From the NCBI GenBank assembly GCA_965223295.1, contig CBDCWC010000002.1:1600001-1664000 (forward strand): DNA of 64,000 nucleotides. The letters run 5' to 3'. A program made the translations under genes and the position numbers. The stretch is from Nitrospirales bacterium. GTDB lineage: Bacteria; Nitrospirota; Nitrospiria; Nitrospirales; UBA8639. Below, piece by piece: positions 4,408 to 56,745 of this stretch. Numbering within the stretch: position 1 is the stretch's first letter; each line of letters opens with the position of its first letter. The notes under the pieces were generated by a model that saw nothing but the letters and a program-made list of their open reading frames with translations, had not been told where the DNA came from and searched no databases.

Positions 4408-4588
4408 ACTCATGAAGATATCAAAGGTCGTATTTCGTCAGGAAGCCTTTGGCGATCAACAGCATCGGGTCCGTTCAAAAAAGTCCGTCCAGCAAGGCCG
4501 CAGCCATTTTTGCGCGCGGAACGTACTGGCACTACGTGAGCACGGAAAAATGGCGAGAACGCCGCTAGCGGCTTTTTTCAACGGACCC
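4398..4588 (+). mobile_element. MITE-like element, copy 1
   Basis: Core 4467-4588 bounded by inverted repeats GGGTCCGTTCAAAAAAG / CTTTTTTCAACGGACCC, plus a degenerate ~69-bp left arm. Flanks ACAAC / ACAAA (near-TSD). Confidence 0.8.
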
Positions 4589-4617
4589 ACAAATACAAAA
4601 AAGCAAGAAATCCGCGT

Positions 4618-8368: not shown

Positions 8369-8438
8369 TCCCACTTCATCAGTGGCCTCAATTCTCTCTC
8401 ACTGAGCACGGATAACGTATCAGCCACCGTATTCTTAT

Positions 8439-8629
8439 GGTCCTATTGAAAAAAGCCGCCAACGGCGTTCTCGCCCTTGTTCCGTGCTCACGGAGTGCCA
8501 GTACGCTCCGCGCGCAAAAATGGCTGCGGCCTTGCTGGACGGACTGTTTTGAACAGACCCGCGGCCTCTGACATATGACGTCGCAGAGACGAAATTTGGC
8601 TGTTGATATCATCATTATTCAACAGTCTC
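8439..8629 (-). mobile_element. MITE-like element, copy 2
   Basis: Homologous to the other copies; flanked by the direct repeat CTTAT (8434-8438 and 8630-8634). Confidence 0.85.
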
Positions 8630-8668
8630 CTTATGGACAGCTGGTCTCCAGCAAATTGAGGTGGCCCG

Positions 8669-13058: not shown

Positions 13059-14021
13059 ATGGCTAACACAACTCGAGACTTTTACCGCATTTTAGGTGTC
13101 TCTAAGACGACTGATCAAAAAGAACTCAAGAAAGCCTATCGACGGCTGGCAAGAAAGTACCATCCGGATTTACATCCCGGAGACAAAAAGGCCGCGATGG
13201 AAAAGAAATTTCAAGAACTCAACGAAGCTTATGAAGTCTTGGGCGATGAGGAGACGCGAAAGAAATACGATCAGTACGGGCCAAATTGGAAAGAAGCCGA
13301 AGCCTATGAACGAGCCCGACAACAAGCAGGCAGCGCCTATCCTGGCGCACAACCTCACTCGGGGTTTTCTCAAGGCGGAGCTGATTTTGGTGATATTTTT
13401 GAAAACATGTTCGGGGGTGGAACACACCGACAAGGCTCTTCGTTCCGAGGCTTTGCCATGGCCGGAGCGGACCTGGAAACTGATCTGCCCATTTCCCTGA
13501 GAGAAGCCTATACCGGAACCAGTCGCACAGTGTCTTTACCTGATTCCACAGGAGGATCTCGACAAATTGAGGTTCGGATTCCTGGTGGGGTGCGAGACGG
13601 CGAACGTCTCCGTGTGAAAGGCAAGGGCGCGCCGGGCCGGGGTGGTGGACCATCCGGGAATCTCTTTTTCCGTGTACATATTGCCCCTCATCCAGTGTTT
13701 CAACGAAAAGATGCCGACATTGTCGTGTCTCTCCCTCTCTGGCCATGGGAAGCCATGTTGGGAACAGAAGTGCAGGTGCCCACATTGTCCGGACCAGTAC
13801 GCTTGAAAATTCCTCCAGGCAGTCAACCACAACAACGTATGCGATTAAAAGGAAAAGGGCTTCCGAAACGAAAAAACGGACATGGTGACCAATTTGTCGT
13901 GTTGAATATCGTTATACCACAAACGATTTCTCCTGAAGAACAACAACTCTATGAGCAATTAGCCAAGCATAATCATCCGGACCCCCGTTCATCCTTGCTT
14001 CATGAGGCCACCCATGACTGA
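13059..14021 (+). CDS. cbpA: Curved DNA-binding DnaJ-class chaperone CbpA
   Basis: J domain with HPD, G/F region and DnaJ C-terminal domain without a zinc finger; followed by a CbpM-like gene. Confidence 0.85.
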
Positions 14022-14361
14022 CAAATCTCAACCAATCTTGGAAGAAGTCACGGCGGAAATTGTCACCCACGGTTTGTTGCGCCGGGAAGAAGTCTGCGCT
14101 CGACTAGGTATAGGAGATGATTTATTAGAAGTGTGTTTACGATGGGAAATTGTTCGTGTACCTGAGCCAAACGCTCAAGGTACCATTCTGTTTTCTCTTG
14201 ATGCGTTTGATCGACTGCAACGCGGTCTTCGCTTGCACCATGACCTGGGGATTAACTGGCAAGGCGTCAGTGTGGCATTGGAGTTACTGGAACGCATTGA
14301 AGAACTGGAACAACAAGTTCATCATCTCTCAACTCAACATGCCAAGCCTCTCGATATTTAA
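14014..14361 (+). CDS. cbpM: Chaperone modulator CbpM (MerR-like HTH)
   Basis: [27 protein letters not shown] motif; start overlaps the cbpA stop (ATGACTGA). Confidence 0.85.
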
Positions 14362-14385
14362 CAACAACCCGCAACAGAACATTAT

Positions 14386-14574
14386 GGGTCTGTTGAAAAA
14401 ACCGCCAGCGGCATTCTCGTCATTGTTTCGTGTTCACGTACTGCCAGTACGCTCCGCGCGCAAGAATGGCTGCGGCATTGCTGGACGGACTTTTTTGAAC
14501 AGCCCCGAGCCTCTGACATGTGACGTCGCAGAGACGAAATGTGGCCGTTGATATCATCATTATTCAACAGGCCC
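14386..14574 (-). mobile_element. MITE-like element, copy 3
   Basis: Ends GGGTCTGTTGAA / TTCAACAGGCCC; flanked by the direct repeat ATTAT (14381-14385 and 14575-14579). Confidence 0.88.
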
Positions 14575-14703
14575 ATTATCGCTGACGAGGCAATAACCGT
14601 TATAATTTTATATCAGGGGCCTCAAGACACTTACAAAGATAGTAGAGAGCAAACGACAGGAAAAATCTATTGGAACCGAAAAAGAGCGATCCGGGAAGAA
14701 ATT

Positions 14704-15408
14704 TTAGGGGCCAGCTCTTAATTGATGCCCCGTCAAACCATGATAGGCCTCATCAATCGTACTGACTGGAGACACATGCATCAGAAAAGGTGTACGCCAA
14801 TCACCATCTTGCTCATCATAGGCACTAGGGACAAAGACTCGTTGGAAATTGTGGTGATAAGCCGCTAAAAGCTTGAGTTGAATGCCACTGACCGGCCCAA
14901 TAACTCCATGGTCCGTTACCGTTCCAGTTAAGGTTCGCCCTTCAAGCACCTGATCGCCTTTGAGCATCGCCACGACACTCAACCCGACCATGGCCGACAA
15001 GCTTTCTCCATACATCGTCATCCCCGGATAAGGGAACCCTAATAAAATGGTCAATGATTTCCCGGAAAGATTTGCCCCACGTAACGAGCTGACAATGGCT
15101 TGATGAACGGATTTTCTGGCTAGTAGAGAAAAATTTCCAGGTTCCGTATGAAATTGAATTTGCAGCCCGTTCTGATCTTGCCGTTTGTATATATCAATTA
15201 TAATGTTCGAGACTCGACCCACTGGTTCGCGCTGTTTATTGAGAGAGACGCCTAAAATTGGAATGGTCAAATGAGGGATTTGCCGTGTTGATGGCTTCGC
15301 CCACAGACCTCCACTCAGACCGCATATCAAGACGAAAATGACACCACTCACAAGACACCAATAACGACCCTTCACACATCCTCCTATCTCAGGCTGTTCC
15401 ACACTCAT
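14704..15408 (-). CDS. Stand-alone S16 (Lon protease C-terminal) domain protein with N-terminal signal/TM
   Basis: GESLSAMVGL (corresponds to GPSAG), TLTGTV...GVIGPVSGIQLKLLAA (catalytic Lys region), VFVP. Confidence 0.7.
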   Translation of the reverse strand: MSVEQPEIGGCVKGRYWCLVSGVIFVLICGLSGGLWAKPSTRQIPHLTIPILGVSLNKQREPVGRVSNIIIDIYKRQDQNGLQIQFHTEPGNFSLLARKSVHQAIVSSLRGANLSGKSLTILLGFPYPGMTMYGESLSAMVGLSVVAMLKGDQVLEGRTLTGTVTDHGVIGPVSGIQLKLLAAYHHNFQRVFVPSAYDEQDGDWRTPFLMHVSPVSTIDEAYHGLTGHQLRAGP

Positions 15409-16212
15409 CCATTCGTCTATCTTTCATCATACCCCATTTTGTCTCAAATGTCGTAGGCATCCACAACGCCAATAAATAATATATGCCTCATCTTGCTACC
15501 GCACAGCAGAGCCCGGTAAGCCTCTCAAACACCTATTTCTCACCAAGCATCTCTCACCAAATAAAGGGCACTTATAAAAACCGGTGAGGTTGTGAGGGCA
15601 AGGAAGCCACGCGTGGAAAAACGCCGTGGACAGGCGAATACATGAGGGCGCACGGTGCGAAGAGCACCACGTTTGCCCATGCCGAAGTCGTGAGTACGCC
15701 ACTGACGCCACCATCAGGGAAAAGGATAGTTTTTAAAAGTGCCCTAAAGATCATTGGCGACCAACTATTGGTTCTGTCCAGACGTGGCAGAACAACATGA
15801 GACTCAAAAAATTAAGGAGGGTCCCTCAGAAAGTTTTCTCAAAAAACCCCCTTAATTTTCGTCTACTCGACACCCTCCCCATCAGACTCTCGAATAGCCT
15901 AAGTTCATACTCTTCATACCTTTTTTTCTGCCTCGTCTTATCCAAGTCACCTCAAACCCATGCCTTTTTCTTGCCCAGAATAAACGCTATCTTTTGTTTT
16001 TTCCATGTGCTAGGCTTTATCCTTCAAAGCTAGGGGCTTGGCTTTGAGCGAGCCGATCACTGAAGCCCGTAACCGGTGTTGTTTTGCCCGAGAGTTTCCT
16101 GGAAAGTGCCTGACCTCAGTCGCCTCAATCTCGCGTCCGCGGCCGCTCCCTTCCCATTGGTTGATGAATCTCGAGCCAAAAGCAATATCATTTTTTCAAA
16201 AGGAGGAACCCC

Positions 16213-16542
16213 ATGGGTTCAAAATTGTACGTAGGGGGATTGCCGTATTCCGCAACTCAGGACGAGTTAACGGAGTTGTTTGCGGCGCATGGGACCGTTC
16301 AATCAGCCAACATTATTAGCGACAAATTTACCGGACAATCTCGCGGATTTGGTTTCGTGGAAATGTCTTCGCAAGAAGAAGCCACAGCGGCCATAGAAGC
16401 GTTAAACTCCACAGAATTTGGTGGTCGAACATTAACAGTCAACGAAGCTCGCCCCCAAGCCCCACGAACCGGCGGCGGAGGACGCGGCGGATTTGGCGGC
16501 GGTGGAGGAGGGTTTGGCGACAAACGCCGCAGCCGCTTCTAA
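16213..16542 (+). CDS. RRM (RNP-1) RNA-binding protein with Gly-rich tail
   Basis: RNP2 KLYVGGL, RNP1 RGFGFVEM, Gly-rich C-terminus; strong SD AAGGAGG. Confidence 0.95.
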   Translation: MGSKLYVGGLPYSATQDELTELFAAHGTVQSANIISDKFTGQSRGFGFVEMSSQEEATAAIEALNSTEFGGRTLTVNEARPQAPRTGGGGRGGFGGGGGGFGDKRRSRF

Positions 16543-16565
16543 CGAACCTTGCAATATCGCTTACC

Positions 16566-16607
16566 ACAAAGAGGAGAGGTCATAAAGACCTCTCCTCTTT
16601 GTTTTTA
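16566..16607. terminator. Rho-independent, probably bidirectional terminator
   Basis: Perfect 16-bp stem ACAAAGAGGAGAGGTC-ATAAA-GACCTCTCCTCTTTGT followed by a T run, between convergent genes. Confidence 0.85.
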
Positions 16608-16629
16608 ATATGCTCATTGCCTTTTCAGA

Positions 16630-17760
16630 TTATTGAGGTTGCTCTAAGCCTGTAGAACGAGCAAGTGTGTTGGTACCTGCGACTTCCTCCTCAGAGTCTA
16701 AGGGAGCCATCCCCTTAAAAACAGCATCACTTAATTTCCGCTTTTTGACAAATTCGTTAGCAGCTCGACCCGTCGCAAAAAATTGCACATGTCGAGACCT
16801 ACTCGTATCAGGTGTAGCAAAGCTGTTATCGTTGTCCAAGGAAGCAAAGAAAGAAGGCACTTTCACTTCATACCAAGGGTTAAATGGTATTGGTTTCTTA
16901 TTTATATCGAGTTTAGGCGTACCATCCTCGTTCGCCAAAACCCGTTCCTCATTTTCGTTTAACACCACTTTCGTGTGCTTCCCATCTTCATCTACTTTAG
17001 GTTCCCCTTCTTCATCGGCTAAAACAAAATGACCACTATCGTTAAAAACTACCCTAGGTTGTCGTGGATTTTGATCCTGACATCCTTCCTTCGTCATTAC
17101 CGGTGGAATAGCTGACTCTTTTCGATTGTACCCAAGCTTCAAGTTCGTTGGGTACGGACCACCTGTACCATCCCATCCCACCTTAATTCCCACTGTCGTA
17201 TCCGTTGCGAAATAAAAGGCCCTTGTATTTTCGTCACCTTCTCCGAATAGCCAATGCCAAAACTTTTTCAGGGGAGGACGCGAGTCGGGTTTCTTGTCTA
17301 GACAAATCTCAGAATAAAGGCTGTCATCGTCTTCTGTTGAGGTCTCATCATTCTGAACAGGATCACTTCCTGAACCAACTGAACCTGTCGTAATGGCCTT
17401 ACTCGATAGACTCTCATCATCTGTTGTCGACTTTTCGCTTGACTCATTTTTTTTAGCTAGAAATACTGCCGCATCACCCCCTGCAAATAATGAGTTTAGG
17501 CCAGGGCTAAACAATCCTCCTGTTCGACCGAATGAAGCAATCAGCGGGGGCGTTTTCTCTTTTCCTACATTGTCTCTAAAAGCTGGCGCAATAGCCAACT
17601 CTCTTCTAGCGACGGTTATTTCTGCTGTTGGAGGTTTGTTTTCGACATCAAGACCCACATTGGTTTTTGTAACAAAAAGAATTCGGTCATATCCAAAGCA
17701 ACCGCTTAACAATGTCGAGCATAGAAGCATTGTCATACTCAATTTCAAGAAAGTAGTCAT
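16630..17760 (-). CDS. Hypothetical lipoprotein with internal repeats
   Basis: Lipobox LLSGC; twofold beta-rich motif; 28-aa tandem repeat; start overlaps the stop of the upstream gene. Confidence 0.8.
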   Translation of the reverse strand: MTTFLKLSMTMLLCSTLLSGCFGYDRILFVTKTNVGLDVENKPPTAEITVARRELAIAPAFRDNVGKEKTPPLIASFGRTGGLFSPGLNSLFAGGDAAVFLAKKNESSEKSTTDDESLSSKAITTGSVGSGSDPVQNDETSTEDDDSLYSEICLDKKPDSRPPLKKFWHWLFGEGDENTRAFYFATDTTVGIKVGWDGTGGPYPTNLKLGYNRKESAIPPVMTKEGCQDQNPRQPRVVFNDSGHFVLADEEGEPKVDEDGKHTKVVLNENEERVLANEDGTPKLDINKKPIPFNPWYEVKVPSFFASLDNDNSFATPDTSRSRHVQFFATGRAANEFVKKRKLSDAVFKGMAPLDSEEEVAGTNTLARSTGLEQPQ

Positions 17761-18173
17761 GGATGATCCTCCTTGTATTCAAGTGAATCTTTCAGTGCTG
17801 TATCGACAGAAGTTTTTGCCGGATAGGATCCTATCTTAAATTCAAAAAAGTCATTGCTTGGTGGTCGATCAATAGTTAGCGCAGTACTATCATCATAAAT
17901 AAGAATATGTTCACGTTGTGCCCACCCAATACTTATGCCCAATTCGCCATTATCTAAACCTAAAGCAAGCCCAGGTAAGGTTGTCCTCTGAATCAGTGCT
18001 TGCTTTTCATTTGAAGTAGGTGCCACCTTCATCGCAAGGTGACCAATACCCCAGATATGTTCAGCACCCGACTCACGGTCACGGTAATAAACTGCACACC
18101 CGCAGACATGCAAACTTACAATCAGTAGAATAAAAATTCTTAATGTCAGGCTGAACAGGAATGAGAGAACCAT
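17757..18173 (-). CDS. Hypothetical lipoprotein
   Basis: From ATG 18173: hydrophobic signal ending VCGC; translationally coupled to 16630..17760. Confidence 0.7.
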   Translation of the reverse strand: MVLSFLFSLTLRIFILLIVSLHVCGCAVYYRDRESGAEHIWGIGHLAMKVAPTSNEKQALIQRTTLPGLALGLDNGELGISIGWAQREHILIYDDSTALTIDRPPSNDFFEFKIGSYPAKTSVDTALKDSLEYKEDHP

Positions 18174-18215
18174 ATGGTACCGATCCGAAGTAGAGCCTTT
18201 GCTAAAAATAAAGCC

Positions 18216-18402
18216 TGCAAAAGTGAGACCCGGACATTGAATATCAGAAAGAGTGCTTAAAAAAGGAATTCCCCCCAGCAATAAACCCATAAGGTTATCG
18301 TGAATATCTCTTCTTAATCCAAATGATCACTGAAAATTTGTATCTAAAAAGATAAGTCCTGTATCTATTTGGATAATTTTTCGTGATTTTTAATGGAACG
18401 TA
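18216..18402 (-). promoter_or_regulatory. sigma54-like promoter (GG-N10-GC, 18230-18217) with two upstream TATC-N6-GATA boxes (18341-18354, 18362-18375)
   Basis: Minus strand reads GGTCTCACTTTTGCA; boxes are 21 bp apart; the whole arrangement recurs at 23441-23622. Confidence 0.6.
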
Positions 18403-18535
18403 TTCTGAACAGACCAATTGCTTGGCCTAATTTGAAAAAATAGGGGAGGTTTTAGTCTTAGAAAGGAATTAGGAGCAGAGCATTAGGACAGCGACTAATT
18501 TTGGGAAGAGACTGCTAAACGAACCTTCTATAAAA

Positions 18536-18658
18536 GCCATAGAGGCATTCAACTCCTCAGAATTTGGTTGACGTACCTTGACAATCAACGAGACCCACCC
18601 CTAAGCCCCACGCACCGGGGGCGGAAGGTTCGGACACAACGGTGGTAGCAGCTTCTGA
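18536..18658 (+). pseudogene. Decayed 3' fragment of an RRM RNA-binding protein gene
   Basis: Translates AIEAFNSSEFG*RTLTINETHP*APRTGGGRFG..SSF* versus intact AIEALNSTEFGGRTLTVNEARPQAPRTGGG...SRF* at 16390-16542. Confidence 0.9.
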
Positions 18659-18678
18659 TACACATTCCATTCACAGAA

Positions 18679-18709
18679 AAGAGGAGAAGCCTTTTTGACC
18701 TCTCCTCTT
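18679..18709. terminator. Terminator homologous to that of the intact RRM gene
   Basis: AAGAGGAGA...GACCTCTCCTCTT hairpin matching 16569-16599. Confidence 0.75.
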
Positions 18710-18744
18710 GTGTTGTGTCAATTCTATTTTTGATGCCTATGGGC

Positions 18745-19920
18745 TTAGGGCAATTCTTTCAACAATGAAAAAATGTTCTTATAGAGCGTCTTCTGGGCTC
18801 CGATTAGACTGGGATCCGTGAAACACCCGAATCCAATATCCAGATGATCGAAGCTTCTGCCAGTGCTCTCTTTCACTTTTTCATAATACCACTTTCCTGG
18901 CTCAATTGGATTTCTTGTAAATATTCCCTCCCCTCCGACCGGGTGCTCTTTTCCCGTAAAGGGATAGCGTTGCGAGATGGAACTCACTGCTCCATCATTT
19001 TCTCGCCACTTCTCAATCACAAGATCGCCAGATCCCCAACTAGGAATTGGTGGATGATCAAAGTCCACGACAACTCCTTGATAAGCAGCCGTGGCTGCCA
19101 AGGAAGGATTCATTAACGGATCTGGATAATGATTAGAGGTCAGCCAACCTTTCGTGGTTTGTTCCGTGATAAAAGAGAGGTAGTAGGTCTGAGGGTCAGT
19201 TTGAAATCGTTGATTGGCTTCGTATCCCCCTTGAAGGGTGAGATCAAATGCTAAGTTATCCTTTCCTTTCGCATAGTTGCTGCGATCTATCTCAGCGACA
19301 ATATTTTTGAAATTCCCGCCTTTCCCTTTTCCAATCCATTGATCCAGGTCAAAATCAAAAATATTCTCAATGGACCCTCCACCGGCCATCGCAAAAAACT
19401 GAATGGCTTTCCCCAGAACAGGACCCAAAGAACCGACTAACAAGCCAGATTGTTTATCACAGCCCAACATATAGGGGAGCGTCGACCCATTCAAGACCGC
19501 AGACAAACACACCACCGCTTCGATCCATTGGGCGTTGGAACCCCATCCCCAGAAATCATCAGCCAACAACTGCTGCAATCGCAACGCGGTATGGCCTCCA
19601 GCACTATGTCCAATAATGATGACTGGGTTATCTTCTGACCAATCTGGAATCAACCCTTTCCCTGTATAATCATCAGAAAATCGGCTATGTTTTTCGGCTT
19701 CACCATGCGAGGCACCATAGTCAATATGCGTACCTTTGATTTGGGCACCCACTTCACAAGCGCGATCATGAAAGGAACTGACCGGTCCGCAACTCGCCTC
19801 ATGTACCGTAAAACCTTGGTGATCGACCTCGCCAGCATACCCCCAGTACGGCAAACCGCCTAACTCCTTTTTGCCCCAACCAAATAAACCGTGGATTAAG
19901 ACAGTATGCTGTGATTTCAT
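18745..19920 (-). CDS. Lipase (alpha/beta hydrolase, family I.5/I.6-like), no signal peptide
   Basis: IHGLFGWG oxyanion loop, GPVSSFHDRACE, nucleophile motif GHSAGG, WRENDGAVS (Asp), FDHL (His). Confidence 0.88.
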   Translation of the reverse strand: MKSQHTVLIHGLFGWGKKELGGLPYWGYAGEVDHQGFTVHEASCGPVSSFHDRACEVGAQIKGTHIDYGASHGEAEKHSRFSDDYTGKGLIPDWSEDNPVIIIGHSAGGHTALRLQQLLADDFWGWGSNAQWIEAVVCLSAVLNGSTLPYMLGCDKQSGLLVGSLGPVLGKAIQFFAMAGGGSIENIFDFDLDQWIGKGKGGNFKNIVAEIDRSNYAKGKDNLAFDLTLQGGYEANQRFQTDPQTYYLSFITEQTTKGWLTSNHYPDPLMNPSLAATAAYQGVVVDFDHPPIPSWGSGDLVIEKWRENDGAVSSISQRYPFTGKEHPVGGEGIFTRNPIEPGKWYYEKVKESTGRSFDHLDIGFGCFTDPSLIGAQKTLYKNIFSLLKELP

Positions 19921-20078
19921 AACTTGCTTCCTAGATCAGACCTATCCTGCTTCATCTTCACGACAATCTATTTTCCAACAGCACACGGGCTCCCATCCCG
20001 ATTCTTACTGTTTTCAACAAATTCAACTAAATAACGGCACACTAGACGAGCTCACCCTTCACTCACTCCCAAAACTCA

Positions 20079-20402
20079 CTAAACAATTACTTTGGCAACT
20101 TTTTCAGCAATGGCAATCACGCGAGCACCTCGATGTATAATGACAGATACATTTTTCAGTTTCTTCTTTTCACCTTTCAGTTCTTTCGTGATATCTGCAA
20201 GGGCTTTTCTCGCGTCAGTAATTTCAGTATTAGTCTGCCCCGCGCGTATGTCATCAATCTTTCTCCACCATTTGGTCATAGCCTTAATTTGACTATTGAT
20301 TGCCGCGCGATCGATCGAATCAGTAATTTTTTCTCGAATCGCGCCTAAATCTAAGATAATTGTCGCAAGTTCGTCTAAAAATTCCTCAGGGGTAGTCACC
20401 AT
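20079..20402 (-). CDS. Small alpha-helical hypothetical protein
   Basis: ATG 20402 with SD GGAG; 107 aa with amphipathic helical pattern; immediately downstream of the lipoprotein gene. Confidence 0.7.
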   Translation of the reverse strand: MVTTPEEFLDELATIILDLGAIREKITDSIDRAAINSQIKAMTKWWRKIDDIRAGQTNTEITDARKALADITKELKGEKKKLKNVSVIIHRGARVIAIAEKVAKVIV

Positions 20403-20451
20403 TGTTTTCTCCTTTGCTGCTAAACGCTTCGCGGGAAGCACCTGTTTTCAT

Positions 20452-21375
20452 TTAATGAGTAATCTGATTCAAGGTTGATAAAAGATTTCGCGCATCACCG
20501 ACAAACTTAGCGATCGTATCGGAGTTGCCTCTCAAATCTGACTGTCGAATCGCCTCATGAGCCTTGACACAACTTTCTACGGTTGATTCAAACTTCTTAA
20601 TAAATAAGCGTGACGGCTCCACCGTAAGGATATCCCGCAATTCGTTTTTCACCAATTGACTAGCAAGTAAATCAAAGGTGGCTTTTTCAGCTGGAGTCAC
20701 GTCTGGATCCTTATAGTTGGCTCGAAAACCATTGAACCATGTTTCACGTGTCGCTTGCGCATTGAGTCTTGTAATTTTGCTCCGAGTCTGCATACCCTTA
20801 ATATCTTTTCGAATGACATCGGTGATAACTTTGATCTGCGGGTGCGCCAATTGGACTTTCTCATAAATGACATCCCTTACCTTCAGATCTACAAACACCT
20901 TCGCCAGAGAAGAAATCGCAGTGGCCAGAACTTGGTCTTTCTGATTCACCGAACCGTCTAACGTCTTTGAAAGATCTCCGAGATTGCCACTCAGCTCCTT
21001 TGAGGCTTTCCCAATATTTTTGTCGTCATTAAATGTGGCAATTTCATGGAGTCCCCTAGCATATTCGGCTAACGATGAAATCGCCGCGCGATTACGGCGA
21101 GCTTCAGCCATGAGGTTTTCACCTTTCACCGCACAATCCCAAGGAGTTCCAGCGCAATCAGAGCTGTCTTCGGGAGCTCCCAAATCCACCGTCATCGCAG
21201 CTAGTTGACGATCGGTTTCTAGTTCCATTTCGTAAAATTTTCCAGAAGCTTCCGACAGAGCTTCTGCGCCATCCGCAAATTTACCAACCGCTTCTAGATT
21301 CACACATCCATTGAGCATGCCAACCAGAAAGAAAAATCCTAGTAACAGACTATTCCGACGTCTGATTTCTGCCAT
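20452..21375 (-). CDS. Hypothetical alpha-helical lipoprotein
   Basis: Basic N-terminus, hydrophobic core and lipobox LNGC; SD AGGAGG; helical/coiled-coil-like body. Confidence 0.8.
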   Translation of the reverse strand: MAEIRRRNSLLLGFFFLVGMLNGCVNLEAVGKFADGAEALSEASGKFYEMELETDRQLAAMTVDLGAPEDSSDCAGTPWDCAVKGENLMAEARRNRAAISSLAEYARGLHEIATFNDDKNIGKASKELSGNLGDLSKTLDGSVNQKDQVLATAISSLAKVFVDLKVRDVIYEKVQLAHPQIKVITDVIRKDIKGMQTRSKITRLNAQATRETWFNGFRANYKDPDVTPAEKATFDLLASQLVKNELRDILTVEPSRLFIKKFESTVESCVKAHEAIRQSDLRGNSDTIAKFVGDARNLLSTLNQITH

Positions 21376-21525
21376 GTTTGTTCCTCCTATTATGATTGTT
21401 AAATCTTCAAAAGAACGGGGCTATAGCAGCATTTACAGTGTTGTAAAACGATCTATCATTGATATTCCTCGTGTCTACACGACTTCGATTGAGCAACCAA
21501 CTATAAAACCTTCATGTCTAAAGAT

Positions 21526-21716
21526 GGGTCTGTTGAAAAAAGCCGCCAGCGGCGTCCTCACCCTTTTTCCTTGCTCAGGTCATACCAGTACGCACCGCGC
21601 ACAAAAATGGCCGCGGCCTTGCTGAACGGACTTTTTTGAACAGACCCGAGGTCTCTGACATGTAACGTCGCAGAGACGAAATGTGGCCATTGACATCATC
21701 ATTATTCAACAGCCCC
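21526..21716 (-). mobile_element. MITE-like element, copy 4
   Basis: Ends GGGTCTGTTGAA / TTCAACAGCCCC; flanked by the direct repeat AAAGAT (21520-21525 and 21717-21722). Confidence 0.88.
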
Positions 21717-21837
21717 AAAGATGATTTCTTGCATTTCTCTATATGAAATACTCAATAAGAACCACATCCACGTTTGAAAGAGCGCTGAACAATACCATTG
21801 CTGACACATCTAACAAAACACGCTTCCCTCATGCCAA

Positions 21838-23241
21838 TCAAAATTTATGGGTGTTTTTCTCTAAACGCTTTGCTTTTTTTCGAGCAATGATTTCTACGTC
21901 GATTCCAGTTGGGCGAACAGCGACTTTCGTAAAATTATCGTCAGAAATCACTTTGCTGGGGTTGGCTAACCGAAATAGGCCAGCCTCTCCACCATCGATA
22001 AACCCTTTTGTTTGAAAATGCCGTGCGGATGGATGCGGGTACGGCCAAAAAAATGCAGAAGACACGACGGAAATAATTTTCAAATTTGATTCCGATACGA
22101 GCTCTACCGACAGTGAAGCATGAACATCTCCAGAGAAAAAGACTACCTTTTGAACTTTATTCTCCTCAATATGAGTAAGAATTTCCTTTCTTTGGTGTTG
22201 AAATCCTGCCCATTTATCACATGATTCTTCAGAACCTGAATCTGGGGCAAATGGAACAGACGTGACAATTATCTTGACCTGCCCCGACCCATCATTCAGC
22301 CACCGTTTAAGTGCCCGCATCTGGTCAATACTCAACATTTCGGACTTCCCGTCTGGATCCAACAGCCGCTCGGTTCTGGAATCAGTCACAAAAATATCAC
22401 AACATCCATCTGAGTATTTGTACCAAAGTTTGTTGGGTGTCCCATGCAATCTTCCTTGCTTGATAGGAATGAGCGGGCTATGGCTGAGTTGATAGGTTTG
22501 GTAAGCATGAATGGCATTGGGAAACAGAGTTTTCCAATCCTTGCCGCTAGATTTGGCTGGCCAATTATCTTCAATCTCGTGATCATCAAGCGTCATATAA
22601 GTGGGAACTTGACTCATCAATGTTCGAATATGTTTCTGAGAAAAGGCATCTCGATAGCGTTGGTAAAACTGACTTACAGATTTGTCTGGATTGAACACAT
22701 TGAGATCATCCGCATAAATTTGGTCGCCCATCATGATCAACTGGTGAACTTCGATGCCTTCATCCTGAATGAGATCCTTCACAATTGATTCGAACATTTT
22801 ATCTCCACGATCATCAAAGAAATCACCAAGGAATGTTTTCAGAAGATATCGACAGGACCCTATAACAAGAGTCCGAGATTTTTTCTTATTGGCCGATGCA
22901 GTCAGAAACTCCCCACCACTTACTCCTTCCCAGTCAATATCCTCAAAAATTTCATCCATTAACTCGGAATCCGAAAAGTAGTACCCCATTTGATATTCAT
23001 AACGCTCCTCGGGTCTTAACCTGTCTAATATGGCGATCCCTGTTAAATCAAAATTGGGATTCATCTTAAAGGTGAGGGGCTTGCTCCAGTTTTCGGTTTC
23101 CTTTTTACGAAAGCGAAGAGCACCAAAACATCGTCGTGGTTGGCCTTCAATGATATGAGCCATACCACGTCCCCAAATACGTGCCCGAGTCGGGGTCGTT
23201 TCTCCGACAATCGGACCAACTGTTAACGGATGAAGTTTCAT
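21838..23241 (-). CDS. PhoD-family (alkaline phosphatase D / phosphodiesterase) metalloenzyme, no export signal
   Basis: GSCRY, MGDQIYAD, LDDHEIEDNW, DSRTER, DKWAGF, FSGDVH; N-terminus begins directly with GPIVG. Confidence 0.9.
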   Translation of the reverse strand: MKLHPLTVGPIVGETTPTRARIWGRGMAHIIEGQPRRCFGALRFRKKETENWSKPLTFKMNPNFDLTGIAILDRLRPEERYEYQMGYYFSDSELMDEIFEDIDWEGVSGGEFLTASANKKKSRTLVIGSCRYLLKTFLGDFFDDRGDKMFESIVKDLIQDEGIEVHQLIMMGDQIYADDLNVFNPDKSVSQFYQRYRDAFSQKHIRTLMSQVPTYMTLDDHEIEDNWPAKSSGKDWKTLFPNAIHAYQTYQLSHSPLIPIKQGRLHGTPNKLWYKYSDGCCDIFVTDSRTERLLDPDGKSEMLSIDQMRALKRWLNDGSGQVKIIVTSVPFAPDSGSEESCDKWAGFQHQRKEILTHIEENKVQKVVFFSGDVHASLSVELVSESNLKIISVVSSAFFWPYPHPSARHFQTKGFIDGGEAGLFRLANPSKVISDDNFTKVAVRPTGIDVEIIARKKAKRLEKNTHKF

Positions 23242-23440
23242 AAATCCTCCATAAATCTGAAAATATCACCAAAGATCATATAGATAAGAACGAAAACAAA
23301 ATATCTTTGACCGGATATCAGATCGTCGTACCTTACTTTTCATTGTTAACTACTAGTCGCAGGGGGGTTAGATACTAGATCTTCGATCAACTCTCAACCA
23401 TGTTTCCTCTGACTCTCCAAAGAAGCACCTACCTTATATC

Positions 23441-23622
23441 TGCAAAGACGAGACCTAGGCAGTGGAAAGCAATCAGATTTTTCTACGGAGAAATTTCCTG
23501 GAAAAATGAAGAAATTATCGTAAATGCTTCTCTATTATCCAGTCAGCTTCTTCAAGTTTGTATCTAAAATGATAAAATATGTATCTATTCAGATAAATTT
23601 CTGGAATAGAAAAGGGAACGTA
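23441..23622 (-). promoter_or_regulatory. sigma54-like promoter (GG-N10-GC, 23455-23442) with two upstream TATC-N6-GATA boxes (23561-23574, 23582-23595)
   Basis: Minus strand reads GGTCTCGTCTTTGCA; boxes and a GGAACGTA motif sit at the same relative offsets as in the 18341-18402 copy. Confidence 0.6.
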
Positions 23623-23684
23623 GTTAAGCAACAGCTGAGAGGTTCAATTAATGAAAACATTGAATTCCGAGAGGATAGCGGGAA

Positions 23685-24176
23685 TTAGGAACGCACCATA
23701 AAGGCAGCGGCAAGAAGAATGGCTAGACCGATCAACATAGTAAGCCGACTGATGAGGGGAGAGAGTCGCAGAAAAATTTTTTCAAGAGGAGTCAATGCCG
23801 ACACGGGTTTATGTTTGATGACTCGGACTTTTGGGCCAATGAATCGATCATGAGCCAGAGAGGCAATGACAAGAAAGAGAACAAGAGTTAATTTGATGAA
23901 CACTGGAAGTGGCCAATCTCCAAAGGATGTGGAGAAATCCACTTGATTGGGAAGAAGAATTCCTCCCGTTACGACGAGTAAAAGCAGGGCGACCCACACG
24001 AGCATCCGAAACCGACGCGCCAGGTTGATAAACTCGCGCTGGGCAATAGCGGGGTCGGGGGCCTTCTTAAGACGAGGGACCGCGACAAGGGAGAGAAAGA
24101 GCATACCGCCAACCCAGAAGGTCGCCGCAACCAGATGAATCCAGACTAAAATAATCTCAAATAACGTCACCTCCAA
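23685..24176 (-). CDS. CopD / DUF4149-like four-TM protein
   Basis: WIHLVAATFWVGGMLFL, LLLVVTG, IKLTLV, HDRFIGP. Confidence 0.75.
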   Translation of the reverse strand: MEVTLFEIILVWIHLVAATFWVGGMLFLSLVAVPRLKKAPDPAIAQREFINLARRFRMLVWVALLLLVVTGGILLPNQVDFSTSFGDWPLPVFIKLTLVLFLVIASLAHDRFIGPKVRVIKHKPVSALTPLEKIFLRLSPLISRLTMLIGLAILLAAAFMVRS

Positions 24177-24365
24177 GATTGTAACGAGATCAATAGTAGG
24201 TTAACTACTCAATATCTCCAAAAAGTTTTTGTCCCCTTAGGTCTCCTTTCACATCTCTTGCTTTCCTACCTCACGCGAACTTCCCTCTGCAACGGAAATG
24301 AACTAATCGGGCATATGACATGTAACCGACACAAACGAAGGGTATTCAGACTGCCAATACAGAGT

Positions 24366-24588
24366 AAGAGTGTTGAATAACACAAAGCATCAGAGGCAAA
24401 TTTCCTCATGATCATGTCAAATACCAAAAACTTCGGGGCGGCTCAAAAAAGTTCATCCAGCAAGGCCGCAGCCATTTTTGCGCGCAGAGCGTACTGGCCC
24501 TGTGAGCATAGAAAAAGGTCCACCTGCCTGCGCGAAGCCGCTCCGGCGAAGGCAGGTACCGCCGCTGGTGGGTTTTTTCAACAGCCAC
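24366..24588 (+). mobile_element. MITE-like element, copy 5, with nested hairpin insert
   Basis: TGTTGAATAA left arm, core CAGCAAGGCCGCAGCCATTTTTGCGCGC, right end TTTTTTCAACAGCC; insert at 24523-24556. Confidence 0.8.
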
Positions 24589-24592
24589 AAGG

Positions 24593-25345
24593 TTAGAAGG
24601 CAATGCCTAAATAGGCACCTGTTGTCCCAAAATTATTTGTGGTGTCGGTTTGCCCAGTGGCCAAATGAAACCGTCCATCAACACCCAAATGAAGGGCTTT
24701 CCATACTCGAACTTGAGCTCCCACCGCAAACTGCACCCCAATATCTAATACCGTTGTATCGTTGGACGGAGGACTAATAACATGAAAATCTAACCCGACA
24801 GGGATGATCCAAGGCCGGAAACGGCTGCCTTCCATGAACATAATTTTCGGAGCCACATCCACCGTTAACATCGTGATCTGTACCCGTTCTTTTCTAGCTT
24901 TGCAAGTGGTCACACCAGCAAGCGCACAAGTACTGGGGACGGCTTGCTGTACCTTTTTTGAGTTAAATCGTTTAAATTCTACTCCGATTTCCCCTAAAAC
25001 CCAGGTTCCAGGCAACAAATCCCAGACATTTCGTGAGAGTAGGAGATCGACGCCAGCCCCAACATAATAGCCAGTATCACCATCGTTGCTCCCATCGAAA
25101 CCAAAGGCATCCGTTTCCACCTCATTCGATCGATCACTCGTCGCCCAAGCCCCACCACCGCGAAAGAAAACCATGTTCCCGGTTTCTTGCTCAGCTCCTG
25201 GTGAGGAAGAGAGCGTTTTTTGTTCTAATCGCTCCAACCGTTCTTCAACAGTCGCAGCTTGCGCCATACTCGCAACCCCCAACATCGCACATACTATCAA
25301 ACCACATACACTACTCCGCACTATGGACCGACCTCTTCTCATCAT
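24593..25345 (-). CDS. Outer-membrane beta-barrel protein
   Basis: Signal peptide (SMAQA), short coiled coil VEERLERLEQK, alternating amphipathic strands, C-terminal YLGIAF; SD AAGGAGG. Confidence 0.7.
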   Translation of the reverse strand: MMRRGRSIVRSSVCGLIVCAMLGVASMAQAATVEERLERLEQKTLSSSPGAEQETGNMVFFRGGGAWATSDRSNEVETDAFGFDGSNDGDTGYYVGAGVDLLLSRNVWDLLPGTWVLGEIGVEFKRFNSKKVQQAVPSTCALAGVTTCKARKERVQITMLTVDVAPKIMFMEGSRFRPWIIPVGLDFHVISPPSNDTTVLDIGVQFAVGAQVRVWKALHLGVDGRFHLATGQTDTTNNFGTTGAYLGIAF

Positions 25346-25661
25346 CACGCCACCTCCTTTATGACATAGTTGTAACATTTCCCTTGAACAGTCATATCTC
25401 ACACTCGACTCAAACCCCTTACATTCAATATCTAGAAAGCCACAAATTTATTTTCATGCGATTCATCCTAGACAAAACCCTCCGCCTCGTCATTGTGGAA
25501 TAACAAGGGGGATAACGATTGTGGTCAAGTTTTTCGATAGGGCGAAAGGCCTAGAAACCGCATGTAGACTTCGCACAGCCAGGAATGCGTTCGGGCTGGA
25601 AATACAGAAGAAAAGCTGTCTTTTGAAAAGGGGAAAAATCGAGAGAGCAGAGAAAAATTAG

Positions 25662-26429
25662 TTACCTTGAAGACGAGACACTTGCTATGTTGGTGAGACG
25701 ATCAACATTGAGTAGAGTGAGATTACGGCCTTCCACTGCAACCAATTCCGCTCCCTGAAAATCTCGGAGAAGACGCACAACAGTTTCAACGGTCACTGCC
25801 GCCATTTGAGCCAAATCTTCCCGTTTAAGTTGAAGGGTGATCCGGCTCCCCTTCTCTACAGGTTCCCCAAACCGCTCGCTCAGATCTACTAGCAAGCGCG
25901 CGAGCCGTTCTCGAGCTGGCGTAAAGGCAAATTGGTCAGCCGTATTTACGACATCGGTCATTTCTTTGCTGAGTACTTGTATCAATTTCACAGCCGCCTC
26001 CCCGTGGTCTTTCAAAAAATTAAGAAAGCTGCCTTGGTCTACAAGAGAAATTTGTGACGGCTCCAGCACCTCACAGGTCACCTGATGAACCGGTTGCTCT
26101 TGAAAGGCCTGCTTTTCTAAGAGTTGGCCTCCGCTTAAAATACCCACTAACCGTTGCTGCCCCTTGCGATTCAACCGCGTGAGTTTTACACGTCCCTGAC
26201 AGAGGATATACAAACCCAAAGCCACATGGCCTTCATAAAACACATGTTGGCCAGGTTGATAGATGACCTGCCGTTTGACCAGACTGAAAGCATCTCCATC
26301 TTGAGGGAGAATTTCACAAATTTCCGAGCATTCTCGATTCGGACAAAGCTCACAATCTGGAATGGCGGGAGATGGAATGGTTTTCATCACCACATCACTT
26401 TCTTCTTTAGCCTGACAATTATACCTCAT
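25662..26429 (-). CDS. Crp/Fnr-family transcriptional regulator with N-terminal Cys cluster
   Basis: CELCPNRECSEIC, cNMP-binding fold (GRVKL), HTH REDLAQMAAVTVETVVRLL. Start 26429 or 26387. Confidence 0.9.
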   Translation of the reverse strand: MRYNCQAKEESDVVMKTIPSPAIPDCELCPNRECSEICEILPQDGDAFSLVKRQVIYQPGQHVFYEGHVALGLYILCQGRVKLTRLNRKGQQRLVGILSGGQLLEKQAFQEQPVHQVTCEVLEPSQISLVDQGSFLNFLKDHGEAAVKLIQVLSKEMTDVVNTADQFAFTPARERLARLLVDLSERFGEPVEKGSRITLQLKREDLAQMAAVTVETVVRLLRDFQGAELVAVEGRNLTLLNVDRLTNIASVSSSR

Positions 26430-26459
26430 TACCCATTCACGAACCAAATGTTCTATTCT

Positions 26460-26605
26460 GGAAGCGTTCAATAATGAAGAGTTCAAAGGCCGTATTTCGC
26501 TAGGAAGCCCTTGTCGATCAGCAGCGTCGGGTCAGCCTGCTCGCCAGTACGAAGCCGCTCCAGCGAAGGCAGAGAACGCCGCTGACGGCTTTTTTCAACG
26601 GACCC
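26460..26605 (+). mobile_element. MITE-like element, copy 6 (internally deleted, with hairpin insert)
   Basis: Left arm matches copy 1; right end CTTTTTTCAACGGACCC; flanked by the direct repeat ATTCT (26455-26459 and 26606-26610). Confidence 0.8.
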
Positions 26606-26759
26606 ATTCTTTATGACTCACAACCTCTCACACTCTCATTGACCCTCGTCCCTTCTATGTAAATAGGGTTTCCGCATGTGCCATAAAATGGTTTCCATTC
26701 AGTTACGTGAAGCTTTATACTCTCCTAACTCCCTCCTTTCACAATTCGTCTTATCGTTC

Positions 26760-27605
26760 ATGGCAGATTCTACTCAACCACTTTCTGAATTACAGACGAC
26801 ATCAGCTTACAAACGAGCAGATTCTGATTCAGCGTTTCTGCAGCGTGATGAATTGCGTGCAGCTCGCTTACAACTGGAATGGTTAAAAGCAGAACTTCTC
26901 CAACAGGATGAAGGTATCCAATCTACCATTGTCGTCTTCGGGAGTGCCCGTCTGTTAGATATGGAAGCTGCACAAGCAAAGGTGGCTGAAGCGGAGCAGG
27001 CACTGGCCCAAGCTCCCAATGATCCTGAAAAGCAACAAGCCATCAAGATTGCTCACAATCAATTGACCTTAGCACCCTATTATCAAGAAGCACGCGAGTT
27101 TGGCCGTTTGGTCTCTTCTGCCTGTCAATTGAAAGGCCGCTGTGAATACGTTGTCGTGACAGGAGGCGGCCCCGGGATCATGGAGGCTGGCAACCGGGGA
27201 GCATCTGATGTGGGAGCAAAATCCATCGGCCTGAATATTGACCTCCCGTTTGAACAAGCGCCTAATCCTTTCATCACCCCAGGCCTGTGCTTTCAATTCC
27301 GCTACTTTGCCATTCGCAAAATGCATTTCCTCCATCGAGCAAAAGCACTTGTCGTCTTTCCTGGAGGATTTGGCACGATGGATGAACTTTTTGACACGTT
27401 GACTCTTATCCAAACGGGAAAAGTGAACGATCTTTCTGTCGTATTAATCGGAAAAGCCTATTGGGAAGACCTGATTAATTGGAGGAAGTTTGTGGAATTT
27501 GGCCTGATTAGCCCTCAAGACTTAGACTTATTTCACTATGCCGAATCGGCAGCAGAGGCCTGGGAAATCATCGCCACCGAACATGAGGAAGGAACCTCGT
27601 CATGA
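26760..27605 (+). CDS. LOG-family (TIGR00730) nucleotide phosphoribohydrolase
   Basis: VFGSAR, TGGGPGIMEAGNRGA, FAIRKMHF, PGGFGTMDE. Confidence 0.9.
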   Translation: MADSTQPLSELQTTSAYKRADSDSAFLQRDELRAARLQLEWLKAELLQQDEGIQSTIVVFGSARLLDMEAAQAKVAEAEQALAQAPNDPEKQQAIKIAHNQLTLAPYYQEAREFGRLVSSACQLKGRCEYVVVTGGGPGIMEAGNRGASDVGAKSIGLNIDLPFEQAPNPFITPGLCFQFRYFAIRKMHFLHRAKALVVFPGGFGTMDELFDTLTLIQTGKVNDLSVVLIGKAYWEDLINWRKFVEFGLISPQDLDLFHYAESAAEAWEIIATEHEEGTSS

Positions 27606-36608: not shown

Positions 36609-36891
36609 GAGCCTGTTGAATAATAATGATATCAACGGCCACATGTAGTCTTTGCGACTCAACATGTCAGAGGCCTCGGGTCTGTTCAAAAAAGTCGGTT
36701 CAGCAAGGCTACAGCCATTTTTTCGCGCGGAGCGTACTGGCACGATGTGAACGCGGAAGAATAGCGGCCTGCTTGCGCGGTGAGGCGCTACGGCGCGTAA
36801 ACGCGAAACCGCGTTCAGCCTTCGTAGCCACTGCGGCGAAGGAGCCCGGCGAAGGCAAGGAACGCTACTGGCAGCTTTTTTCAACAGACCC
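36609..36891 (+). mobile_element. MITE-like element, copy 7, with multiply nested hairpin inserts
   Basis: Ends GAGCCTGTTGAATAA / TTTTTTCAACAGACCC; ~90-bp insert at 36768-36860. Confidence 0.82.
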
Positions 36892-56392: not shown

Positions 56393-56498
56393 GCCTGTGC
56401 TCCTTGATTCTTCTACTTTACTATATATGATTGTGCCTTTGTTGCAGGCCCTACGGTAATCATTGCTCACCATTCTTTGCAAGAGATGTTTCCGCAAG

Positions 56499-56618
56499 GA
56501 GTTTGTTGAAAAAATCCACCAGCGGCGTTCTCACCATTTTTCCGTGCTCACGTACGACATATACGCTCCGCGCGTAAAAATGGCTGCGGCCTTGCTGGAT
56601 GAATTTTTTGAACAACTC
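56499..56618 (-). mobile_element. MITE-like element, copy 8 (core only)
   Basis: Ends GAGTTTGTTGAAAAAA / TTTTTTGAACAACTC around the conserved core AAAAATGGCTGCGGCCTTGCTGGA. Confidence 0.8.
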
Positions 56619-56745
56619 ACAAGCTCCGAGCCCCCAAGTCCGCCTGAGCAAATTTGTCTGTGGCACTCAGTAATATCTCTCACTCTCTCTAAAAGCTCCA
56701 TCAGATAATCACTCAGTTGCCTGAATCGCATCTTAGGTTTAGACT

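Follow-up and report, generated by a model that had tools for sequence, protein, structure and literature searches.

The window analysed here is a stretch of 64,000 nucleotides from a Nitrospirales bacterium (assembly GCA_965223295.1, contig CBDCWC010000002.1, positions 1,600,001 to 1,664,000). It contains a locus in which a gene for an RNA recognition motif (RRM) protein and a gene for a CopD-like membrane protein enclose two successive cargo units, each with its own promoter. Our reading is that this locus is an integrase-free recombination hotspot, to which a foreign allele has been added by recombination anchored in the flanks, and that its promoters belong to a sigma-54 regulon; we give this reading a probability of about 0.62. 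The genome of the window is called G000, the other G numbers are those of its relatives' genomes.

Two parallel units in one locus

The locus consists of two parallel units. The first comprises the RRM gene, a terminator, cargo, a promoter and a remnant of a CopD-like gene; the second comprises a remnant of an RRM gene, a terminator, different cargo, a promoter and the intact CopD-like gene. A first-pass annotation, made from the sequence alone, had described conserved borders around unrelated cargo, and alignment bears this out. The left border is 81% identical over 90 nt (16390-16479 against 18536-18625), and the local alignment that includes the terminator (16390-16603 against 18536-18714) scores 131, against a maximum of 41 in shuffles. 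In the right border (18215-18493 against 23440-23709) 173 of 288 positions are identical, the score is 103 and the shuffle maximum is 43. The cargo DNA of the two units aligns with a score of only 33, below a shuffle maximum of 61, and is therefore unrelated. The right-border homology extends into the decayed 3' end of a CopD-like gene, thus a CopD 3' end meets an RRM 3' end at the junction between the units.

The RRM gene (16213..16542, plus strand, Pfam RRM_1 5.6e-25) is intact and forms the left flank and putative recombination anchor. It is followed by an intrinsic terminator with a 16-bp stem (16566..16602), which a consensus terminator scan lists on the plus strand; judging by the A/T runs that flank it, this terminator probably serves both the RRM gene and the convergent cargo. 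The cargo of unit 1 is on the minus strand and consists of the genes for two predicted lipoproteins, lp1 (16630..17760, 376 aa) and lp2 (17757..18176, 139 aa). Upstream of them lie a sigma-54 type -24/-12 element of the form GG-N10-GC (18216..18231, minus strand), which aligns across the slot promoters, and two tandem enhancer boxes of the form TATC-N6-GATA (18341-18354 and 18362-18375). The CopD-like remnant (18469..18523, minus strand) has an approximate left limit. The junction itself (18523..18535) is also found in the relative G016. The decayed 3' half of the RRM gene (18536..18658, plus strand) contains two in-frame stops and has lost about 30 nt of the Gly-rich tail.

In unit 2 the terminator hairpin (18678..18709) is homologous to the first one and is absent from the list of the consensus scan. 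The cargo is again on the minus strand. It includes an alpha/beta-hydrolase of the lipase type with a GHSAG motif (18745..19920) and a PhoD-like phosphatase (21838..23241); both names had been given in the first-pass annotation and both hold, with Pfam matches to Lip_C (1.5e-25) and PhoD (9.9e-28). Between these two genes there are a 107-aa helical protein (20079..20402) and lp3, a 307-aa all-helical predicted lipoprotein (20452..21375). The promoter has the same parts as in unit 1, a -24/-12 element (23441..23456, minus strand) and tandem boxes (23561-23574 and 23582-23595). The CopD/DUF4149-like gene (23685..24176, minus strand) is intact and forms the right flank and putative anchor, its family matches are weak and fall below the cut-off.

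A contig from a separate run of another study (X1-3) covers positions 15643-21553 unbroken, with 76 differences and 2 gaps, so the layout is not an assembly artefact. Long pieces of a further run, X3, are identical to the window, which may derive from that run. Divergence within the species is mosaic around lp3: the X1/X2 strain differs from the window at 62 of 1650 letters over 19905-21553 and at 6 of 1833 over unit 1. The window was said to lack an integrase, which agrees with the genome as a whole, where the nearest of six tyrosine recombinases (PF00589) is about 755 kb from the slot.

The slot in related genomes

A CopD-like orthologue is present in 43 of 50 genomes of the genus, at 44 places. 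We examined 42 of these, leaving out G013 and G031, in which the gene lies at a contig end. The gap is bounded by the RRM and CopD-like genes in 37 of the 42 loci; the count of gap lengths excludes G009 and G014, where the stretch has no RRM gene, G033, where the left border was not reached, the broken-up locus of G072 and the second copy of G067. Among the 37 loci, 24 are empty (at most 350 nt), one is a relic (G024, a 1.0 kb gap with a degenerate promoter) and 12 are filled (2.0-10.2 kb). The slot is as hypervariable as had been supposed: no two of the 12 filled loci have the same gene set, although single genes do recur. Among the cargo of relatives are peptidases (S8, trypsin and C92), patatins, lipases, an endonuclease/phosphatase, proteins with Ig or FG-GAP repeats, a LuxR-type regulator accompanied by a PatG-like protease, and genes of insertion sequences (IS), whose transposases occupy the slot of some relatives. 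Many cargo proteins are lipoprotein-like and belong to no family.

Clades that carry the tree-support mark in the dnaJ, RRM, CopD and lonC trees are called starred here. In the CopD tree 20 of the loci with no slot promoter fall into a single starred clade (19 empty ones and G026, which is included in the 24), and the empty loci of G068, G001, G005 and G004 fall among filled genomes. Neighbouring intervals also vary: cbpM-lonC differs by up to 4.7 kb, lonC-RRM differs by 10 kb in G030, and many relatives lack omp-crp. The slot is therefore part of a wider variable region.

Several relatives have unusual forms of the locus. G021 and G015 have, at the RRM position of the locus, a nearly whole pseudogene without 5' end and promoter that lies beside lipase remnants; RRM paralogues are found elsewhere in both genomes (the pseudogenes are at L034:5469-6530 and L039:9821-10470). 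The slot of G015 (L039:4034-9326) contains a LuxR-type regulator, a PatG-like subtilisin and an aminotransferase, and resembles part of a cyanobactin-type cluster. Contig C127 of G067 (L086:1984-10303) has a second, divergent CopD-like gene (54%), three boxes and a lipoprotein-like open reading frame (ORF) of 2383 aa without a Pfam family; it is either a whole extra slot allele or bin contamination. Two joints in other runs, X3 (RRM stop fused to the unit-2 terminator) and X5 (3.5 kb between phoD and CopD), faintly hint at further slot alleles in relatives.

A predicted sigma-54 promoter with paired boxes

In each promoter block two TATC-N6-GATA boxes lie at a distance of 21 nt from each other, and a GG-N10-GC element about 105 nt beyond them is aimed into the cargo. 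The distance from box to -24/-12 element is 102-108 nt in 14 slot promoters. This suggests that both units carry a sigma-54 enhancer-dependent promoter, predicted to be active. The genome encodes RpoN, as judged by the presence of the RpoN box, and has 29 matches to the activator family PF00158, 21 of them strong. The promoter had been expected to stay the same while the cargo changes. This is the case in 9 of the 12 filled loci, where boxes and -24/-12 element immediately follow the CopD stop (G034 and G015 each have one imperfect box); the filled loci of G021, G027 and G035 have no such arrangement, and none of the 24 empty gaps contains a box. The stacked units do not lie under one common promoter, as the first-pass annotation had it, since each has its own.

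A weight matrix trained on 16 boxes from relatives finds 20 box pairs in G000 and none in five shuffles. A -24/-12 motif lies 95-125 nt from the pair at 14 of the 20 sites, both sites of the window included, compared with 2.1% of 5000 AT-rich control positions. The exact pair occurs in 36 of 36 genomes of the genus and in 52 of 61 genomes searched, with the reversed control in none. In the phylum it occurs in 46 of 251 genomes, mostly within the order, and in 0 of 18 genomes of genus g12. Its presence at 20 sites of the genome and throughout the genus indicates that the box pair marks a regulon.

The spacers between box and -24 element show a different pattern. Those of slot promoters show homology among themselves, with a median z of 5.0 and a z above 3 in 77% of 91 pairs; unit B of G072 is included as a slot promoter that does not share the spacer. 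Between slot spacers and those of 12 other regulon promoters there is no homology (median z -0.2, 1% of 168 pairs). The boxes are thus dispersed, but the promoter block as a whole is one inherited element of this locus, so the suspicion that it might be a dispersed repeat applies to the boxes only. What we take to be the IHF consensus is found in 0 of 15 spacers. Carriage of the box pair by phages was considered and rejected: 15 viral stretches match, but the 10 of these that were checked all lack a -24/-12 motif and several are direct repeats.

Predicted regulon members and a candidate activator

The G000 sites stand, among others, in front of a polysaccharide operon, a radical-SAM cluster for a ribosomally synthesised and post-translationally modified peptide (RiPP), a filamentous-haemagglutinin locus and an operon with a PEP-CTERM gene as its last member. 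Genes for a tyrosinase, a di-haem protein, a Tle1-like hydrolase and two-component systems are also found behind them. Targets of this exterior type fit the general link of sigma-54 to the cell exterior, as outlined in the literature (PMC3162934).

Some of these sites have features of their own. The RiPP cluster (L066:3743-8191, G000:C3:387742-392190) begins with a repeat-rich, precursor-like ORF of 176 aa followed by two B12 radical-SAM genes (TIGR03975 above cut-off), and it lies directly behind a box pair and -24/-12 motif. In locus L060 (G000:C3:1718000-1738000) three box pairs surround the genes of an FHA-like sigma-54 activator, a cytochrome c protein and an autotransporter barrel, together with a PEP-CTERM gene and a caspase-like protein. 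In family f2 a box pair lies downstream of hemL (L179, L180, L181, L191; G000:C3:1359493) and the genes behind it differ among G049, G052, G056 and G054; this may be a second promoter-capture slot. In the distant genome G054 (L190:3410-5561) three lipoprotein-like genes lie behind a box pair, with N-terminal motifs that to the eye are reminiscent of lp2 and lp1.

The most likely candidate regulator is an NtrC-type activator encoded at G000 C3:1036890, with the helix-turn-helix LGLQRTYLSR. It is present in 35 of 36 genomes of the genus and adjoins a TonB receptor and an operon of binding protein, kinase and receiver that has two box pairs. The signalling cluster around it (L061, G000:C3:1034000-1049000) comprises the activator, the TonB receptor, a receiver-PAS protein, a HAMP-GAF kinase and an ABC-type binding protein; activator, receiver, kinase and binding protein are kept in G029, and the cluster is a candidate controller of the regulon. 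A box pair is found about 110 nt upstream of the homologous activator operon in G278; in G074 one lies just past the end of the activator gene, in G237 one is close to the gene, and in G038 and G033 one is at most 4 kb away. Among 19 hand-picked genomes outside the order, with the pair-positive G097, G108 and G265 left out, the activator is present in 3 of 3 pair-positive and 1 of 16 pair-negative genomes. Presence/absence profiling of the activator gives no discrimination within the order.

No sigma-54 regulon for nitrite oxidisers or comammox bacteria was found in the literature searched, which did not extend to subscription papers and supplements with possible motif tables. The box-pair regulon is apparently undescribed and, with its candidate activator, is the new part of this work.

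Origin of the two units

G000, G072, G016 and G073 form a group that is starred in the dnaJ and RRM trees, weaker in the CopD tree and absent in the lonC tree. G016 has the junction and the lipase-phoD unit as in G000, with different cargo in unit 1. Comparison among relatives shows that the RRM and CopD-like genes are convergent core genes and that, in part of the genus, a resident promoter of the sigma-54 type just behind the CopD-like stop points into the gap between them, with cargo that for the most part encodes predicted lipoproteins and hydrolases. The mechanism that we infer for this integrase-free hotspot is as follows. Binding of the NtrC-type activator to the boxes would switch on the cargo together with the extracellular polysaccharide (EPS) operon, the RiPP cluster, the tyrosinase and the adhesin locus. 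Cargo would turn over when chromosomal DNA from a relative recombines in the RRM gene on the left and in the CopD-like gene or box pair on the right, as the sequence affinities suggest. The two units would have arisen once, in or before the ancestor common to G000 and G016. A foreign allele (RRM end, terminator, cargo, promoter and CopD 3' piece), anchored in the RRM gene, may have been joined illegitimately to the middle of the resident RRM gene, pushing the resident lipase-phoD allele downstream and leaving two remnants that then decayed. One or more replacements of unit 1 would have followed, involving a crossover at the boxes, and IS elements would later have deleted or scattered units in G073 and G072.

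The affinities of the individual parts support this order of events. The RRM remnant best matches G072 and the window's own intact RRM gene, which is its own clade, and not the paralogues. The unit-1 spacer is closest to G030 (z 8.0, compared with z 4.9 to its own unit 2), in which the slot cargo is lp2-lp1 only, and the stretch behind the CopD remnant best matches G033 (54/79), a carrier of the same genes. An own-clade RRM remnant beside a foreign-like spacer and CopD-side stretch fits additive integration as modelled for Vibrio cholerae arrays in the account of Kirchberger et al. (PMC5361080). In unit 1, G000 and G016 are 74% identical outside the boxes, 83% in the boxes and 55% in the spacer inside them; in the unit-2 control the identity is 85%, with 80% in the spacer. 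Homology with unit 1 of G016 switches on at the unit-1 boxes. The spacer values of 55% and 80% indicate that one of the two lineages has swapped spacer and cargo by a crossover at the boxes.

Signs of recombination in the flank amount to one clear CopD exchange and one foreign CopD end, counted without a genome-wide background. The CopD genes of G006 and G034 are 93% identical and their dnaJ, cbpM, lonC and log genes 73-76%, the exchanged tract being limited to CopD. An extra CopD end with promoter in G072 is nearer to G021 and G012 (62/78 and 61/77) than to the gene of G072 itself (50/77); its phoD is nearer to G016 and G073 (88-89%) than to G000 (84%). ComEC is present in the genome. The borders had been proposed to act as recombination anchors, and this they appear to do, with the qualification that the right anchor is the CopD-like gene together with the box pair and not the promoter alone.

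Several observations weigh against the reading given above. As to the added allele, the junction is common to two genomes only, G000 and G016. The CopD remnant scores 24/33 against the window's own gene and 30/42 against the best match, G034, and is too short to be placed. The relatives of the cargo have 65-66% DNA identity (lp2), so none of the genomes compared is a direct donor, and lp2-lp1 and phoD also occur at loci other than the slot. As to the regulon, the 95-125 nt range was picked after the box-pair scan was seen, and the strict -24/-12 motif is found at only 7 of 22 box pairs in other genomes, with none at the pairs of G278, G237 and G074. The activator also occurs where there is no exact box pair, in 14 of 18 genomes of g12 and, among the f2 genomes that lack the pair, in 21 of 23, and three other activator genes lie near box pairs in G000. 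Finally, no signal peptide is seen in PhoD or the lipase, so the term exported does not cover all cargo.

The unplaced CopD remnant leaves room for a local tandem duplication from the middle of RRM to the CopD 3' end, after which the remnants decayed and the cargo of the first copy was replaced independently; the regulation would be the same. Such a duplication requires no donor, and it agrees with the junction shared with G016 and with the best match of the RRM remnant to its own clade, a match equally expected under additive integration. The unit-1 spacer, nearer to G030 than to unit 2, and the match to G033 behind the CopD remnant argue for a source elsewhere, as do the codons of the remnant, short and decayed as it is, which fit the LAVLF-type ends of G012, G034 and G006 better than the window's own. 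We regard the duplication as unlikely.

The slot of G073 looks single and contains, between terminator and lipase, an IS-end-like scar, which we take to be an IS3 end; unit 1 has thus probably been lost from G073. The locus of G072 is split by IS elements, with promoter, phoD and lipase 290 kb from CopD, and the sequence just upstream of this displaced group (L090:8100-8300) resembles the 3' end of a group II intron. The gap might be a safe landing site between convergent genes, into which modules of promoter plus cargo move mainly by IS elements, with flank homology of minor importance. Besides the displaced group in G072 and the scar in G073, IS genes in the slots of G035, G033 and G072, copies of a miniature inverted-repeat transposable element (MITE) in G000, G007 and G028, and the lp2-lp1 pair that G067 has outside the slot, behind a slot-type promoter, speak for it. 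It accounts neither for the CopD exchange between G006 and G034 nor for the crossover at the boxes, slot promoters have common ancestry and a fixed place behind the CopD stop, and the slot of the window has no transposase; such a landing site is distinctly unlikely. A dedicated site-specific cassette system, in which the box pair is the site of a recombinase encoded elsewhere, is highly improbable: two 14-nt arms 6-8 nt apart have a geometry that we take to resemble tyrosine-recombinase sites, one crossover maps to the boxes and the genome has its six tyrosine recombinases, but the inter-arm spacer is not conserved and ranges from 6 to 8 nt, a pair is present at only one end of each unit, the pairs lie at a fixed distance upstream of sigma-54 motifs and before conserved signalling operons, and no recombinase is linked to the slot in the annotated loci.

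Cargo proteins and other features of the window

The three putative lipoproteins have lipobox-like N-termini, read by eye, and neither they nor the 107-aa protein match a Pfam family. That the cargo might stand out in composition is true in part: lp1, lp2, the 107-aa gene and phoD fall in the lowest 5% of GC content among 1383 long ORFs and the lipase does not. The GC3 of lp1 is in the lowest 1%.

lp1 has 170 homologues and is present in 7 of 50 genomes of the genus, in three of them in the slot. Searches for its function returned no Pfam or NCBIfam family, no sequence match in PDB and only hypothetical proteins in the Atlas; its structure model gives no Foldseek match at E<=0.001 and a best VIA Z of 3.7. 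lp2 probably starts at 18176, as relatives of 138-139 aa suggest; a longer ORF from 18290 overlaps the promoter. It is found directly upstream of lp1 in four relatives (G030, G033, G067 and G012) and was not seen beside lp1 in G014 or G017. In G067 the lp2-lp1 pair sits outside the slot behind a slot-type promoter.

lp3 has 93 homologues, and its structure is predicted with a pLDDT of 85.7. Searches with this model gave no Foldseek match at E<=0.001 (a ClyA row has E 0.1 and rmsd 15.8), a best VIA Z of 13.2 to a designed helical bundle, which indicates no specific fold, and only hypothetical proteins in the Atlas. The phoD and lipase genes are adjacent in G016, G073 and G072, from which we conclude that lp3, the 107-aa gene and a MITE-like repeat were inserted later. 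Pairs of similar appearance in G021 and G072 compare with lp3 and the 107-aa protein at BLASTP E 0.14 and 0.28 and at hhalign probabilities of 15% and 46% over the N-terminal part only, so homology is not supported. The lipase has orthologues in the slots of G016 and G073 and remnants in G021 and G015.

The MITE-like repeat (21524..21721) is outside the slot design. It belongs to a dispersed 190-nt family with 347 hits in the genome, 208 of them of at least 100 nt. Further copies in the window are at 4462-4590, 8437-8634, 14384-14579, 24430-24590, 26543-26607, 36609-36890 and 56497-56621, and copies are also found inside the RRM-CopD gap of G007 and G028. A second dispersed family is represented at 15560-15750, upstream of the RRM gene; it has dozens of copies in the genome and a variable middle between two conserved blocks. 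A search of positions 14000-27000 gave 0 Rfam matches, and a scan for sigma-70 promoters found 10, compared with 12.5 in shuffles.

Significance

Nitrite oxidisers and comammox bacteria grow as microcolonies embedded in EPS. The swapping of cargo is itself textbook, it is the regulon that could matter. Since the motif is sharp, one genome has about 20 targets and a candidate activator can be named, the control of surface and exported proteins is directly testable. The slot also suggests a route by which acquired genes come under host control at once, since the promoter either stays or travels in register.

A more speculative idea, which we put forward tentatively, is that the box pair is an undescribed switch of the Nitrospirales cell exterior whose promoters double as recombination anchors and so capture genes for exported proteins, the RRM-CopD gap being one of several such slots. 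If so, the switch would probably sense density or contact through the TonB receptor, periplasmic binding protein, kinase and NtrC-type activator. Incoming genes would be wired into it on arrival, an integron-like outcome without an integrase, and the site behind hemL in family f2 would be a second candidate slot.

Comparison with known systems

The locus is a recombination hotspot of a known kind with one displacement event, and not the dedicated cassette machinery implied by calling it an undescribed system. It is not an integron, not an array of type VI secretion system (T6SS) genes and not a PrsR target. An integron was rejected as there is no linked integron integrase and each stacked unit has its own promoter; the repeat listing shows no short repeat family between cargo genes, in the absence of a search aimed at attC.

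The PrsK/PrsR regulon of PEP-CTERM proteins described by Haft et al. (PMC1569441) resembles the one reported here in its upstream motif, sometimes repeated, with a -24/-12 element before genes for exported proteins, and in its link to EPS. According to the motif given there (PMC1569441), it ends in TTTACA and has a spacer near 63 nt, unlike the TATC-N6-GATA pairs with a spacing of 97-120 nt found here. PrsR is a separate gene in this genome, and was ruled out as the regulator on motif, spacing and targets. None of seven PEP-CTERM genes has a box within 600 nt, one of them is the second gene behind a box pair.

A motif search of the literature returned RhpR of Pseudomonas syringae as the only context. 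RhpR belongs to the OmpR family, so it would not activate sigma-54. Its site, GTATC-N6-GATAC, as reported is a single inverted repeat (PMC4191427) with the same letters as a single palindrome of the box pair, unlike the tandem pairs found here, which are two helical turns apart and upstream of sigma-54 elements.

In V. cholerae, arrays of displaced T6SS effector-immunity modules are attributed to homology-facilitated illegitimate recombination (Kirchberger et al. 2017, PMC5361080). As in that account, the slot has a conserved anchor, a new module in front, an old one pushed back and a remnant at the junction, and plain replacement is commoner than stacking. The slot differs from these arrays (PMC5361080) in that whole units are stacked, each with its promoter, and no T6SS sheath gene was found. 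T6SS cargo was rejected because the genome, rated 100% complete, has 0 VipB matches in a search that was positive in an E. coli control; the term effector used in the first-pass annotation is dropped accordingly, effector-immunity pairing being unsupported.

Replacement flexible genomic islands, as defined by Lopez-Perez et al. (2014, PMC4033161), also have different genes of similar cell-exterior function at the same place, exchanged by homologous recombination. Compared with the islands of that definition (PMC4033161) the slot is small (2-10 kb) and sometimes additive, and it is empty in 24 of 37 loci, a count made across species where the definition applies within species.

The closest description is that of integrase-free hotspots, core-gene-bounded intervals with rapid turnover, no integrase and recombination in the flanks (Oliveira et al. 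2017, PMC5635113). The slot shares with the hotspots so described the variable interval between core genes, the fast turnover, the lack of an integrase, a possible recombination signal in a flanking gene and the presence of ComEC. Our comparison is across species of a genus and theirs (PMC5635113) is within species. Unlike the hotspots in that description (PMC5635113), the slot contains a regulated promoter that is resident and persists through changes of cargo, and the activator boxes are the site to which one crossover maps.

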